From: a phage
DNA length: 64,000 bases
Sequence record: PZ402304.1
Direction: 5' to 3' (one strand)
Below are positions 35,074-55,500 of this stretch, in pieces (the first letter of the stretch is position 1; each line of letters begins with the position of its first letter). Both the position numbers and the translations under genes were made by a program. The notes beneath the pieces are model-generated. The model was not told the DNA's origin and did no database searches. It saw only the letters and a program-made list of their open reading frames with translations.

Positions 35074-35100
35074 ATAATACTATACTATTCGTAAAGCATA
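35074..35100 (-). promoter_or_regulatory. middle promoter with MotA box upstream of gene 31
   Basis: minus strand taTGCTTTA-N12-TATTAT. Confidence 0.55.
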
Positions 35101-35409
35101 TTACATAAGAAGCAAACGTTCCACCGGAGTACCATCAACCGAAATTACTTTATCAAGGCGGAAAGAACGCCACTGACCTAACTTGGTGTCGAATGCTCGA
35201 ACTGATTCACGAGGTTCATAACGAACTTCTGTTGCCGGATTGTTATTTTCATATTTGACTTCAAGTTCATCGCGCGAAGCAAACATAGTGCGTACCTCAC
35301 CGTTAGCCTTTTCAAATACAACACAATGAACGCCTACAGACAGAATAGTTTTAATACGTTCACGAAGAACCATAGTTTCTTGTTCAGTTAAAATCATATT
35401 ATTCACCAC
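35101..35409 (-). CDS. hypothetical protein (31.1-like)
   Basis: 102-aa ORF between cd and gene 31. Confidence 0.6.
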   Translation of the reverse strand: MVNNMILTEQETMVLRERIKTILSVGVHCVVFEKANGEVRTMFASRDELEVKYENNNPATEVRYEPRESVRAFDTKLGQWRSFRLDKVISVDGTPVERLLLM

Positions 35410-35980
35410 AAAAGTTTCGGATTTGTTCCCAATTCAGAGAACGAAGATTATTACGAGAGTACTGAATTACTTCAATACCGGCTTGTTTTAGAATGTCTGC
35501 CCAATTTTCAGGAGATCTGTCATATAATTCTGCGTATACAACCTTTTTAATACCTGACTGCGTAATAGCTTTAGTGCAATCAGGACACGGAGAAAGCGTC
35601 GTATATAACGTAGCACCTTCAATAGAATTACCTTTACGAGCTGCAAACAAAATTGCGTTCAATTCCGCATGGATTTCGTTATTAGCAGACCATGCACTAT
35701 GAGCGGCCCGATGTTCTTTAGCCAAAACAAAATTATCTGCCCGTCCAAATGCTGTAGTGCCTTCTTTATGACCAGCAACGATGACCGGGCTTGGTTTATT
35801 CTTCAACCAACCGTTTTCGGATGCATGTTCGCAACAGTTTGTACCACCTGAAGGAGAGCCATTATAACCTGTAGAAATAATGCGTCCATCTTTTTCAATG
35901 ACGGCACCAACTTTCCATGAACAACATTTTGATTCTTGAGAAATCAGATATGCAATCTGAAGGTATGTGCTAGCTTTCAT
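35399..35980 (-). CDS. cd: dCMP deaminase
   Basis: 193 aa; HAELNA...PCPDC zinc-binding cytidine/dCMP deaminase motifs. Confidence 0.95.
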   Translation of the reverse strand: MKASTYLQIAYLISQESKCCSWKVGAVIEKDGRIISTGYNGSPSGGTNCCEHASENGWLKNKPSPVIVAGHKEGTTAFGRADNFVLAKEHRAAHSAWSANNEIHAELNAILFAARKGNSIEGATLYTTLSPCPDCTKAITQSGIKKVVYAELYDRSPENWADILKQAGIEVIQYSRNNLRSLNWEQIRNFCGE

Positions 35981-36972
35981 TATTGAACCTTATTAATATA
36001 AGTTAACAGCTCTTTAGTTTGTTCCCAACTGATGCACGCATCGGTAATGGAAACGCCATAGGACATATTATCAGAAATTTTTTGATTTCCTTCATGTAGG
36101 AATGATTCTATCATAATTCCTTTGACCAAATCATTAGCTGCTAAATTTTTACCAATACCAATTTGATTGCTATAATACCCATCAGCGTTTGCATGGCTAC
36201 AGTCAACCATTACATAATGATTCAGACCTAATGCACTTGCTTTGTTAGAAGCTTCTTGAATATCAGAAGAATGATAGTTCGGGCCGTTAGTCCCGCCACG
36301 CAATACGATATGCGTATTCTGATTACCTTCAGCTTCAACAATGCCTACAGTACCATCGACGTCCATACCCATATACCGATGAGGCCAGGCGGCACTATAC
36401 ATCGCGTCTGTAGCTACTTTAATAGAACCATTGGTTGCGTTCTTGAAGCCTACGCACATCGGTAGACCTGAAGCAATTTCACGATGTGTCTGACTTTCAG
36501 TCGTACGGGCGCCAATAGCAACCCATGAGAAAATACCAGAAAGATACTTAATCGTGAATGGGTCTAATACTTCAGTTGCTAATGGAAGTCCCATACGTAG
36601 AAGTTTACGACACAATGTTCGTGCAACTATAAGACCGTGGTTCATATCAAAACTTCCGTCAAGATATGGATCATTTACAAGACCTTTCCAACCTACGGTA
36701 GTTCGAGGCTTTTCAAAATAAACGCGCATCACTAACAGAACATTAGGAAGACGAGTTTGAAGTTCAGCCAGACGTTTGCCATATTCAACAGCAGCAATAG
36801 GGTCATGAATTGAACAAGGACCTACAACAATAAGTTTGCGTGGGTCTTCACCGTTCATAATCGAATTAACTTGTTCGCGATGAGAAGCCACTTGTGATGC
36901 GTAAGCTTCCGACAAAGGAATAATCTCAGCCAGTTCTTTTGGAGAAATAAGTTTTCTGATGACAGGTAACAT
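35980..36972 (-). CDS. 3-deoxy-D-arabino-heptulosonate-7-phosphate (DAHP) synthase, class I (AroG/AroF-like)
   Basis: 330 aa; GPCSIHD, VMRVYFEKPRTTVGWKGL, GARTTESQ, LRGG, DCSHAN, ESFLHEGNQ, SITDAC motifs of DAHP synthases. Confidence 0.9.
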   Translation of the reverse strand: MLPVIRKLISPKELAEIIPLSEAYASQVASHREQVNSIMNGEDPRKLIVVGPCSIHDPIAAVEYGKRLAELQTRLPNVLLVMRVYFEKPRTTVGWKGLVNDPYLDGSFDMNHGLIVARTLCRKLLRMGLPLATEVLDPFTIKYLSGIFSWVAIGARTTESQTHREIASGLPMCVGFKNATNGSIKVATDAMYSAAWPHRYMGMDVDGTVGIVEAEGNQNTHIVLRGGTNGPNYHSSDIQEASNKASALGLNHYVMVDCSHANADGYYSNQIGIGKNLAANDLVKGIMIESFLHEGNQKISDNMSYGVSITDACISWEQTKELLTYINKVQ

Positions 36973-37092
36973 AACAATCCTTAGGAGATATAAACAGATT
37001 CTGATTCAACAATACCTTTAACCGGATTAGACAGGCTAAGTTGGTAGTGCTCAGATTTATGACCATTCTCGATAGTAATGAGATAACTCTCA

Positions 37093-37329
37093 TTATAGTG
37101 TTCCATATACTCGAGTTGCTTCAACAAGACCATCACTGCCTAATTTAAGATTAGTAATTTGGTCACCATCTTTAGGATTAACGATTATGAGAAAAGAACG
37201 AGGAGATTCTTGAATAACTCGTAATGTTGCATCCTGGAAACGTTCAGACACTTTATTGATGAGTGCTTGAGCGAATTCTTTTACTTTAATCTGAAATTCG
37301 TGTACTGTAATTGGATTTTCACTTAGCAT
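37093..37329 (-). CDS. hypothetical protein
   Basis: 78-aa ORF in the cd-pseT variable region, downstream of an early-type promoter. Confidence 0.5.
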   Translation of the reverse strand: MLSENPITVHEFQIKVKEFAQALINKVSERFQDATLRVIQESPRSFLIIVNPKDGDQITNLKLGSDGLVEATRVYGTL

Positions 37330-37357: not shown

Positions 37358-37387
37358 ATAGTATCACAACTCTACTGTGTTGTAAAC
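37358..37387 (-). promoter_or_regulatory. early-type promoter (GTTTAC ... TGnTACTAT)
   Basis: minus strand GTTTAC-N18-TACTAT. Confidence 0.5.

Positions 37388-38066: not shown

Positions 38067-38067
<1 letters not shown>
37876..38067 (-). CDS. hypothetical protein
   Basis: 63-aa acidic ORF; TAATG overlap with pseT stop. Confidence 0.5.
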
Positions 38068-39153
<1,086 letters not shown>

Positions 39154-52556: not shown

Positions 52557-55500
52557 ATGGTTGACATCAAACGTAAGTTCAGGGCCGAAGATGGTCTTGA
52601 CGCAGGCGGTGATAAGATAGTTAACGTTGCGCTTGCTGACCGCACAGTTGGCACCGATGGCGTGAACGTTGACTTTTTGGTGCAAGAAAACACCGTACAG
52701 AATTATGACGAGACGCGCGCGTATACAAAAGATTTTATTGTTCTTTATGATAATCGTTTTTATCAAGCTTTAAGCGATATTCCAGCTCCGGCAGGCCCTT
52801 TCTCTTTGGCTAAATGGAAGGCAACTCGTACAGATGCAGAATGGATTACAGTTCAAGGCGGAGATTTCCAATTATCAGTAGGTAACTCTATTGCGGTTGA
52901 TACTTCAGCTGGCACTGATATTAATTTCACTTTGCCTCAAAATCCTTTAGATGGCGATACAGTTATTTTGTCTGATATTGGCGGTAGAGTAGGCTATGTA
53001 AAAGTTCAAATTACTGCAGCGGCTCAAAGTATTGTAAACTTTAGAGGACAACAGGTTCGTTCAGTTTTAATGACGCACCCAAAATCTAAAATGGTCTTCA
53101 TTTTTAGCAACCGCCTATGGCAAATGTATGTTTCTGATTACGAACGTAATGCAGTCACAGTAACTCCTGCTAAGCCATATCAAGCACAACCTAACGATTT
53201 TATCATTCGACATTTTACATCAGCCGCTCCTATTAATATTACATTGCCTCGTAATGCTAATAATGGCGATATTATTAATTTAGTGGATTTAGACAAATTA
53301 AACCCATTATATCACACAATTGTCAAAACTTACGATGATACAACTTCTATACGAGAAGCTGGTGTTCATGTAGCAGAAGGACGTAATACTGCGGAAGCAT
53401 TCTTTGTTTATGATTCTGCCAATAGTTTATGGCGTGTTTGGGAAGGTGACCAGAAATCTCGTTTACGTATAGTTCGTAATGATACTGATTTACGCCCTAA
53501 TGAAGAAGTTCTTGTTTTTGGAACTGATAATAATACAATCTCGACGGTAAATCTTACTTTGCCTACAGATATTTTGTCTGGCGATACTGTTAAAATATCG
53601 TTGAATTATATGCGTAAAGGGCAAACTGTAAAAATTAAAGCTGCTGAAGGCGATACAATTGCTAGCAGTATTTCTTTATTACAGTTCCCAAAACGTTCTG
53701 AGTATCCACCTGATGCACAATGGGTTTCTGTTAGTGAGCTGGAATTTAATGGTGATACTTCGTATGTACCTGTACTTGAGTTATCTTATATAGAAGATTA
53801 TTCATCTGAAACAAAATATTGGGTAGTTCAACAAAACACCGTAACCGTCGAACGAGTCGATGCATCTAGCAATAACACTCGAGCTCGTTTAGGTGTTATT
53901 GCTCTTGCTTCTCAAGAGCAAGCAAATGTCGATTTAGAAAATGCTCCTGGTAAAGAACTGGCTATTACTCCTGAAACATTAGCAAATCGTACAGCAACTG
54001 AAACTCGTCGTGGTATTGCTCGTATTGCAACAACTGCACAAGTTAACCAGAATACCGATTTTGCATTCCAAGACGACTTGATTATTTCTCCTAAGAAATT
54101 GAACGAACGTACAGCAACTGAAACCCGTAGAGGTGTTGCTGAAGTTGCAACTCAGGCTGAAACTAATGCTGGAACAGATGACACCACTATTATTACTCCT
54201 AAGAAATTGGATGCCCGTCAAGGTTCTGAAGTTTTATCCGGTATTGTAAAATACACATCTACGACTGGTACTACAGCTGCTACTATTCGCGGTAATGCTG
54301 GGACTAACGTTTATAACAAAGCCGTAGATAATTTAACTATTTCTCCAAAGGCTCTTGACCAGTATAAAGCTACCCCTACTCAGCAGGGTGCAGTAATTCT
54401 TGCTATTGAAAGTGAAGTTATCGCTGGCGAATCACAAGCCGGTTGGGCTAATGCTGTAGTGACCCCTGAAACTCTGCATAAGAAAACTTCTACTGATGGA
54501 CGTATTGGTTTAATTGAAATTGCTACGCAAGCAGAAACTAACACTGGAACTGATTATACTAGAGCAGTAACGCCTAAGACGTTAAATGATAGGAAAGCTA
54601 CGGAAGGATTATCTGGCATAGCCGAAATTGCTACGCAAGTTGAATTTGATACTGGAACTGACGATACTCGTATCTCGTCTCCACTGAAAATTAAAACTCA
54701 TTTTGATTCTTCTGACCGTACCAGTGTTAATTCTGATTCCGGACTTATTGAAGAAGGAACCTTGTGGAACCATTATACTCTTGATATTTCTAAAGCAAAT
54801 GAAACACAACGCGGTACACTTCGCGTAGCGACCCAGGCAGAATCTAATGCAGGAACTTTAGATGATGTTCTTATTACTCCTAAAAAGCTTTTAGGGACTA
54901 AGTCCACTGAAACGTCTGAAGGCGTGATTAAGGTTGCTACTCAGGCTGAAACTGTAACAGGAACTTCTGCTAATACTGCTGTATCACCTAAGAATTTAAA
55001 ATGGATTGTTCAATCAGAACCATCATGGACTGCTACTACGGCAATTCGTGGATTCGTTAAAACTTCATCTGGTTCTATTACATTTGTCGGTGACGATACT
55101 CAAGGTAATACCCAGGATTTGAATCTTTATGAGAAAAATAGTTATGCTATTTCTCCATATGAATTAAACCGTGTACTTGCTAACTACTTACCGTTGAAAG
55201 CTAAAGCAGCTGATAGTAATTTGTTAGATGGTCTAGATTCTCTTCAGTTCATCCGTAGAGACATCGACCAGACGGTTAATGGTTCTTTAAGTTTTACTAA
55301 ACAGACCAACCTGAGTGCTCCTTTAGTATCTACAAGCACTGCTTCTTTTGGTTCCGAAGCATCTGTTACTCGTAGATTAACTCTTAATGACTCTAGCGGT
55401 TCCGAAATAATTTTCACTAAAGGAACCCAATCTCTTAGTAATAAAGAGAATTTCGTTGTTAGAGCATGGGGTAATAGCGCTACAGATGGTGCCCGTGATA

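Follow-up and report, generated by a model that had tools for sequence, protein, structure and literature searches.

The question raised by this locus is why a T4-like phage should carry a gene of its own for the first enzyme of the shikimate pathway, and whether that enzyme still answers to the aromatic amino acids that hold the bacterial enzymes in check. The stretch analysed (the window) comprises 64,000 nucleotides of phage DNA from sequence record PZ402304.1; on its minus strand, between the genes pseT and cd, lies an open reading frame (ORF) for a DAHP synthase (DAHP being the 7-phosphate of 3-deoxy-D-arabino-heptulosonate). The gene as such is not a discovery, being catalogued in phages, where it is uncharacterised. 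Of the explanations considered, the best, to which we give a probability of about 60%, is that it encodes an active, feedback-insensitive DAHP synthase that holds open the entry to the shikimate pathway during infection and supplies the products derived from chorismate.

A full-length DAHP synthase

The gene and the codons of its metal ligands are placed as follows.

35980..36972, minus strand: DAHP synthase gene, 330 codons plus TAA, with an ATG start (ORF call; Pfam, NCBIfam and PHROG matches)
36816-36814, 36195-36193, 36108-36106 and 36042-36040, minus strand: codons of the metal ligands C53, H260, E289 and D311, respectively (residue mapping)

By family and by fold the product of 330 amino acids (aa) belongs, over its full length, to the type I-alpha DAHP synthases (EC 2.5.1.54). 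A preliminary description, made from the letters alone, had taken it for an intact class I enzyme, and a hidden Markov model search agrees from end to end and far above the cutoffs: PF00793 (DAHP_synth_1) matches residues 36-323 with E=1.7e-74 and 250.6 bits (cutoff 25.5), covering model positions 8-269 of 270, and among the NCBIfam models TIGR00034 (aroFGH) scores 426.6 bits (cutoff 173.2) and NF009395 454 bits (cutoff 343). The isozyme-specific equivalogs of NCBIfam stay below their cutoffs, at 362.8 for AroG (NF006723, cutoff 568) and 385.2 for AroH (NF009396, cutoff 463). The closest relative of solved structure is the tyrosine-sensitive AroF of E. coli (6agm, E=1.6e-104), followed by the DAH7PS of N. 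meningitidis and by E. coli AroG. The 3-deoxy-D-manno-octulosonate 8-phosphate (KDO8P) synthase KdsA, a member of the same Pfam family, was considered and rejected: the four NCBIfam matches and the 21 matches to solved structures are all DAHP synthases, and none is KdsA.

The metal ligands, which had been called equivalent to those of AroG, are all four kept on alignment, C53, H260, E289 and D311 corresponding to AroG C61, H268, E302 and D326. So are the residues that bind phosphoenolpyruvate (PEP) and erythrose-4-phosphate (E4P), namely R83, K88-P-R-T91, G154-A-R156, K177 and R225 (in AroG Arg92, Lys97-Pro-Arg-Thr100, Gly163-Ala-Arg165, Lys186 and Arg234); the metal ligands, the KPRT motif and the PEP-binding Arg and Lys are the same in E. 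coli AroF (PDB 6agm/6agl), AroG (1kfl, 1qr7) and AroH. Column by column we compared 25 phage cluster representatives, from six genera or more, with 98 bacterial proteins: the 14 residues for metal, PEP and the E4P phosphate are unchanged throughout, except for four bacterial proteins with Ser at T100. Six of the seven signature motifs that the preliminary description quoted occur verbatim; the seventh reads VSITDAC and not KSITDAC, the lysine being the AroG residue.

An AlphaFold2 model (predicted local distance difference test, pLDDT, 90.9; predicted template-modelling score, pTM, 0.91) gives a complete (beta/alpha)8 barrel, which Foldseek superimposes on the solved structures 4hso, 5cks and 1kfl, of E. 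coli AroG and N. meningitidis DAH7PS (TM up to 0.96 for both enzymes), with template-modelling (TM) scores of 0.94-0.96 and root-mean-square deviations (rmsd) of 1.4-1.5 A. The model also retains the beta6a/6b hairpin (strands 198-203 and 209-214) that is common to AroF, AroG and AroH. The phage protein thus shares family and fold with these three E. coli enzymes, at 51, 48 and 45% identity, respectively, and is shorter than they are by 18-26 residues. It is expected to be catalytically competent, turning PEP and E4P into DAHP and inorganic phosphate.

The amino-terminus and the inhibitor pocket

Two parts of the gene bear on whether such an enzyme could still be inhibited by Phe, Tyr or Trp.

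36943..36972, minus strand: short N-terminus (MLPVIRKLIS...), in which the segment corresponding to AroG 3-9 (AroF 4-10) is absent
36331..36552, minus strand: six clade-specific pocket codons, I141 (36552-36550), K142 (36549-36547), G146 (36537-36535), P171 (36462-36460), Y200 (36375-36373) and A214 (36333-36331)

The N-terminus is shorter by 7-11 residues than those of AroF, AroG and AroH, and there is no canonical in-frame start further upstream. The same is true of the whole phage group: 48-52 residues precede the metal-binding Cys in 25/25 phage proteins against at least 58 in 98/98 bacterial ones, and the columns of AroG 3-9 are gaps in all 25, where the bacteria have a motif of Thr (76/98), Asn or Asp (97/98) and Leu, Val or Ile. 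Residues 1-10 of the model form no strand. The missing segment, which the three E. coli enzymes possess, forms a cap over the inhibitor site of the adjacent subunit, through Asp6, Asp7 and Ile10 in AroG and Asn8 and Ile11 in AroF. Jossek et al. reportedly found in 2001 that the change N8K in AroF, or deletion of its Ile11, abolishes inhibition by Tyr.

The pocket beneath the cap, which we take to be located at the tight-dimer interface, is altered as well. An unbiased scan of about 330 columns, for those in which one residue is common to at least 90% of the bacteria and another to at least 90% of the phages, returned only six (AroG numbering): P150I, Q151K, D155G, S180P, F209Y and T223A. In the phages 180P, 209Y and 223A are found in 25/25, 150I and 155G in 24/25, and 151K in 24/25 with a single R; among the bacteria Gln151 and Phe209 are invariant (98/98), with Ser180 in 97/98 and Pro150 in 90/98. 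The E. coli enzymes accordingly have Gln151, Ser180, Pro150, Phe209, Asp155 and Thr223 where the phage enzyme has Lys, Pro, Ile, Tyr, Gly and Ala. Four of the six discriminating columns figure among the positions of the inhibitor site or of feedback resistance that had been compiled in advance from the literature (Fisher p=1e-4, over 125 bacteria-conserved columns), and the remaining two, D155 and T223, adjoin the pocket. T223 lies two residues from V221 and presumably within the regulatory hairpin; D155 is reported to stabilise the inhibitor region through a salt bridge.

Several of these positions have been probed in the bacterial enzymes. Q151 and S180 of AroG, like Q152 and S181 of AroF, bind the main chain of the inhibitor, and the feedback-resistant mutants include P150L, S180F, L175D, L179A, F209A/S and V221A (PMC9529685). 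Compared with the engineered feedback-resistant enzymes (AroG P150L, S180F, L175D and F209A; AroF N8K, Ile11 deletion and P148L), the phage protein is changed at the same positions 150, 180 and 209 and in the same N-terminal segment; it differs from them in combining a natural N-terminal deletion with six substitutions, in having had these fixed for long, and in the replacement residues. Since the cap is deleted and residues of the inhibitor contact and the pocket are replaced, we predict that neither Phe nor Tyr nor Trp inhibits the phage synthase. The preliminary description had noticed that the N-terminus appeared shorter than that of AroG and supposed that this could alter feedback inhibition; with the lost segment capping the pocket, and the pocket residues replaced across the clade, that guess was understated.

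A second phage lineage presents a parallel. Aeromonas phage HJ05 (OQ594355; L013 3399-4562) encodes a DAHP-synthase homologue of 387 aa, annotated as hypothetical and 37% identical, which has 14/14 of the catalytic residues and the pocket changes S180P, Q151H, P150A, D155P and F209V. It resembles the phage clade in being phage-borne, in keeping the catalytic set and in having a non-canonical pocket with the same change of Ser180 to Pro; it differs in its unrelated phage type, in its locus and in a long His-rich N-terminal extension. To judge from its sequence, it is probably an independent phage acquisition that has likewise been deregulated.

An accessory gene long resident between pseT and cd

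The two genes that bound the conserved slot are these.

35399..35980, minus strand: cd, deoxycytidine monophosphate (dCMP) deaminase, directly downstream of the synthase (ORF and Pfam)
38067..38966, minus strand: pseT, polynucleotide kinase/phosphatase, the upstream anchor of the slot (ORF and Pfam; synteny)

The 8 kb around the gene are 97% identical to Escherichia phage vB_EcoM-RPN187 (Straboviridae, Tevenvirinae, Mosigvirus), in whose record the gene is named phospho-2-dehydro-3-deoxyheptonate aldolase. By tblastn a homologue is present in 213 GenBank phage records, 140 of which reach at least 95% identity; the majority bear the annotation DAHP synthase, and the closest copies (ST0, SF, PHB12 and others) are 99.7% identical. 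The protein matches 330 of the 341 profile positions of PHROG 5045 (E=1.3e-181), whose category is 'moron, auxiliary metabolic gene and host takeover'; a 2020 preprint lists the gene as a Mosigvirus auxiliary metabolic gene of unknown role, and the phiC120 genome paper mentions a DAHP synthase domain. With annotation in most of the 213 records and mention in the literature, the gene is not new. The window protein is an ordinary member of the PHROG 5045 group, the GenBank aldolase of Mosigvirus and related Straboviridae (for example ST0, HX01, JS09, PEi20, CHI14, EcS1, F48 and PM2), from which it shows no substantive difference and with which it shares the locus.

Two sets of database entries deserve a remark. 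One protein cluster of 98% identity (P0001) is labelled '[Escherichia coli]' by NCBI; it comes from a contig of 170,875 bp and is probably a phage genome deposited in a bacterial assembly. There are also matches of 45-47% in 'phage' records that resemble bacterial DNA, a 13-kb record of Acinetobacter phage MD-2021a with 'aroF_2' (H126) and a 2.4-kb record of Salmonella phage S.Kent 1-2-1 (H127).

The gene had been called host-like, and it is so at the level of the family and no further, its identity to AroF, AroG and AroH being that given above. In a search of 5.8 billion proteins, only a phage group of proteins of 319-343 aa lies above about 57% identity, its named members all being phage proteins and the others metagenomic sequences; bacterial proteins start at 55% identity or less. 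In a neighbour-joining tree of the 25 phage representatives, their 95 nearest bacterial proteins and E. coli AroF, AroG and AroH, the phage clade is monophyletic in 200/200 bootstraps. The composition is that of the phage: the synthase, which is co-oriented with cd and pseT, has a GC fraction of 0.405 and a GC fraction at third codon positions (GC3) of 0.287, close to its neighbours as had been supposed (GC3 0.268 in cd and 0.35 in pseT), compared with a GC3 of 0.50-0.57 for E. coli aroF, aroG and aroH. The codon-aligned nucleotide identity to aroF is 54%.

The position is also shared. The same slot between pseT and cd is occupied in Kanagawavirus PEi20, Marfavirus F48, Winklervirus CHI14, Bragavirus PM2 and Kagamiyamavirus EcS1, making six genera with Mosigvirus; in the five further genera the synthase lies downstream of pseT and the cd.x ORFs, with 0-2 small ORFs between it and cd. 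Synthase and cd are direct neighbours in Mosigvirus, Kanagawavirus and Marfavirus, and one or two small ORFs, possibly homologues of cd.1, separate them in Winkler-, Kagamiyama- and Bragavirus (CHI14 L007 4498-4839; EcS1 L009 4483-4818; PM2 L008 4457-5016). T4 itself, on inspection of its locus, has only cd.1-cd.5 between cd and pseT, as the preliminary description had stated. Across the genera the synthase is 58-77% identical to the window copy, to be compared with 65-82% for cd, 45-66% for pseT and 44-78% for gp31.

Because the GC3 is phage-like, the clade is recovered in every bootstrap, the slot is shared and the identity follows that of cd, pseT and gp31, we regard the synthase as one old acquisition inherited with the phage genome, and not as a recent capture from a host. 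The view that this is a long-resident gene, put forward on composition and orientation, is thereby strengthened by a phylogeny and by the common slot in five further genera.

Selection within Mosigvirus is harder to read from the close orthologues, whose ratios of non-synonymous to synonymous substitution (dN/dS, omega) of 0.15, 1.19 and 0.59 rest on 6-12 differences per pair and are uninformative. The copy in AV118 (L010 301-1293) is 99% identical to that of the window, with eight of ten differences non-synonymous and omega about 1.2, too few to interpret; such an excess is unusual beside the strong conservation across genera.

Some members of the same genus dispense with the gene altogether, and the features at its borders bear on how it was lost.

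35977..35983, minus strand: downstream junction repeat ATAATGA, where the synthase stop TAA and the cd start ATG overlap by one base (TAATG); RB69 breakpoint
36981..37106, minus strand: ORF of 41 aa (MEHYNESYLITIENGHKSEHYQLSLSNPVKGIVESESVYIS), directly upstream of the synthase; a hypothetical protein in AV118
37090..37096, minus strand: upstream copy of the ATAATGA junction repeat, at the cd.2-like stop codon

In RB69, the type species of Mosigvirus, there is no synthase and cd adjoins cd.2. Aligned with the window, RB69 lacks approximately 35984-37077, a cassette of about 1.1 kb made up of the synthase and the 41-aa ORF. The breakpoints fall within the direct repeat ATAATGA(a/g)AG at the two stop/start junctions (37096-37090 and 35983-35977), and in a BLAST comparison of RB69 with the window the two matching segments overlap by 19 nt at the junction (RB69 L014 6237-6255); the repeat suggests a precise loss of the cassette by short-homology recombination. 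A query spanning the junction found the same null arrangement in ECO111 5-P, mar005P1, JK36, JK42 and moha. The arrangement is present in 11 Mosigvirus records, as against about 140 with the gene, and also in Dhakavirus-like phages. The synthase is therefore an accessory cassette and not an essential one.

Two further observations concern the neighbours. The 41-aa ORF fits tightly between the cd.2-like ORF on one side and the synthase on the other, overlapping both junctions; PADLOC returned no defence-related match for it or for the synthase. The cd gene of RB69 (L014 5743-6252) is annotated with 169 aa as opposed to 193 aa in the window, its frame departing near the C-terminus (ADILKPSWY* vs ADILKQAGIEVIQYSRNNL), a difference due either to a frameshift or to an error of sequencing in the old record; a 2026 paper in Nucleic Acids Research (NAR) reports other such errors in the RB69 record.

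Expression, role and competing explanations

Signals that may govern expression of the gene are the following.

36978..36982, minus strand: Shine-Dalgarno sequence AAGGA, 5 nt before the synthase ATG and overlapping the stop of the 41-aa ORF
37358..37387, minus strand: candidate T4-type early promoter GTTTACA-17 nt-TG-a-TACTAT, a consensus match between the cd.3-like and cd.2-like ORFs
38350..38374, minus strand: candidate middle promoter with a MotA-box-like element, TGCTTCA ... TACAAT, inside pseT and upstream of the unit (pattern search)

An early promoter is annotated in the same slot of T4, and the candidate here could serve cd.2, the 41-aa ORF, the synthase and cd, the last of which is possibly coupled translationally to the synthase. 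Taken together the features of the locus suggest transcription before replication from phage promoters, outside the control of TyrR and TrpR, to which the promoters of E. coli aroF, aroG and aroH are subject; the phage gene sits in the phage's own early region. The window as a whole has 15 MotA-like sites (TGCTTNA-N11-13-TANNNT) where 3.9 are expected, a number reached in 0/100 shuffles, and 12 of the 15 lie on the minus strand, which is also the one that codes in this region (for example 35074-35098, 38350-38374 and 54772-54797).

The course of events that we favour would thus start from a phage-specific lineage of DAHP synthase, long seated among the early genes between pseT and cd in T4-like phages. 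Before replication the gene would probably be transcribed from early or middle promoters of the phage as a unit of cd.2, the 41-aa ORF, the synthase and cd, which would place it beyond the reach of TyrR and TrpR, while the loss of the site for Phe, Tyr and Trp would free the enzyme from inhibition by the aromatic amino acids. The entry step of the shikimate pathway would then stay open whatever the aromatic pools and even after host gene expression has been shut off, and the chorismate so supplied may go to Phe, Tyr and Trp and to the precursors of folate and quinones. A rationale through folate and p-aminobenzoic acid (pABA), suggested by the adjacency of cd, is one possible end product and is indistinguishable here from a supply of aromatic amino acids. 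In this account the sequence features, fold, phylogeny, synteny and dispensability are observed, while catalysis, the time at which the gene is expressed, resistance to feedback and the end product from which the phage profits are inferred.

A number of points weigh against this account. PheA, TyrA and TrpE remain under the feedback regulation of the host, so that extra DAHP need not raise the aromatic amino acids. Phages without the gene are common and viable, and because of this any benefit must be conditional. The promoter assignments are consensus matches only, and sigma-70-like sites are not enriched in a scan of the window (14 vs 13.5 in shuffles), for which reason only the one in the slot of the T4 early promoter is put forward. 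A literature search for enzymology, expression (transcriptome, proteome or metabolome) or a phenotype found none for any member of the group. The phage substitutions are not those of the characterised mutants (S180P vs S180F, P150I vs P150L, Q151K vs Q151A and similar). Lastly, the pocket columns are more constrained in the phage clade than the rest of the core (entropy 0.21 vs 1.06 bits, P=0.0003), and a new pocket so conserved fits a site still under selection, perhaps for some other ligand, better than one that has been discarded; the constraint could be structural, arising at the dimer interface, or reflect the binding of something else.

This last point leads to the supposition that the pocket has been re-purposed, the enzyme now being under allosteric control by a different effector such as an anionic metabolite or a nucleotide intermediate bound at Lys142 and Tyr200. 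The low entropy is what this would predict; the six replacements have stayed fixed while pairwise identity within the clade fell to 53%, they introduce a positive charge (Q to K) and a hydroxyl group (F to Y), and the gene adjoins and overlaps cd, itself an allosteric enzyme of nucleotide metabolism. The bacterial pocket columns, however, are also conserved (0.54 vs 1.31 bits), so that structural constraint at the dimer interface could suffice, and no N-terminal cap remains to close the site. Of five altered positions compared in HJ05, moreover, only S180P is common to both, the other four having different replacements (H, A, P, V). We think it rather unlikely that the site has found a new ligand.

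It is unlikely, too, that the phage simply carries an additional copy under normal regulation, which would replace the host enzyme after shut-off with aromatic feedback kept. The tyrosine-sensitive AroF is indeed the closest solved relative, the AroF-typical residues Pro148, Gly212 and Met182 are shared, and the regulatory beta6a/6b hairpin is kept in the model. Yet the main-chain contacts Gln151 and Ser180, nearly universal in the bacteria, are replaced, the segment carrying AroF Asn8 or AroG Asp6-Asp7 is deleted, and the isozyme-specific NCBIfam models fall short of their cutoffs; single changes at such positions already abolish inhibition (PMC9529685).

A third possibility looks past the aromatic products to the substrates: an irreversible drain of E4P (and PEP) might pull the pentose-phosphate pathway towards pentoses for nucleotides and towards arabinose-5-phosphate for the arabinosylation of DNA, a pathway that draws on ribulose-5-phosphate (Ru5P) (PMC13326640). 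The synthase does lie among genes of nucleotide metabolism, and an arabinose-5-phosphate isomerase, the marker enzyme for arabinosylation, accompanies it in synthase-bearing Mosigvirus, in EcS1, Winklervirus and Bragavirus, and in Entb_45. The isomerase (RB69 L012 7964-8599) occurs in 276 phage records, and its overlap with the synthase is not strict. Among Klebsiella phages there are 25 records with the synthase and at most three with the isomerase, for Acinetobacter phages there are 57 records with the isomerase and only four synthase matches, and RB69 arabinosylates its DNA without a synthase; the co-distribution is thus partial, and it is confounded by shared ancestry. The papers on the pathway do not mention the synthase gene, and E4P is itself an intermediate towards pentoses, so that draining it lowers the yield. 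A role as a sink strikes us as quite improbable. Taken as a pair, conversion of the pocket, by changes kept under strong purifying selection in at least six sampled genera, to a site for a new effector linked with infection (a metabolite of the nucleotide or pentose-phosphate pathway, for example) and an enzyme locked as an E4P sink tied to the pentoses for phage DNA synthesis and arabinosylation would each make the synthase a rewired control point, more than a deregulated copy, an outcome to which we assign only a small chance.

That the gene is a recent capture from a host, or a decaying passenger with no role in the phage, is very improbable, for although it is missing from some members of its own genus, RB69 included, and eight of ten differences between two close Mosigvirus copies are non-synonymous (tiny numbers), it reaches no more than about 55% identity to any bacterial protein and 54% nucleotide identity to aroF, its codon composition is phage-like, its ORF is intact with 14/14 catalytic residues in all 25 representatives, its slot is conserved and it changes at a rate similar to that of cd and pseT.

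We return, then, to an active and deregulated synthase as the preferred explanation. What it offers beyond cataloguing, for a gene that is itself ordinary among RB69-like phages, is a specific and testable prediction of deregulation. Deregulated DAHP synthases are sought for the metabolic engineering of aromatics, and the phage lineage provides an evolved combination of an N-terminal deletion and six pocket changes. Natural Mosigvirus pairs with and without the gene, such as moskry and moha from the same collection, make any ecological benefit directly testable. If the explanation is correct, this would be a natural feedback-insensitive DAHP synthase, and T4-like coliphages would be seen to bypass the control valve of aromatic biosynthesis in their host, beyond merely adding an enzyme to it.

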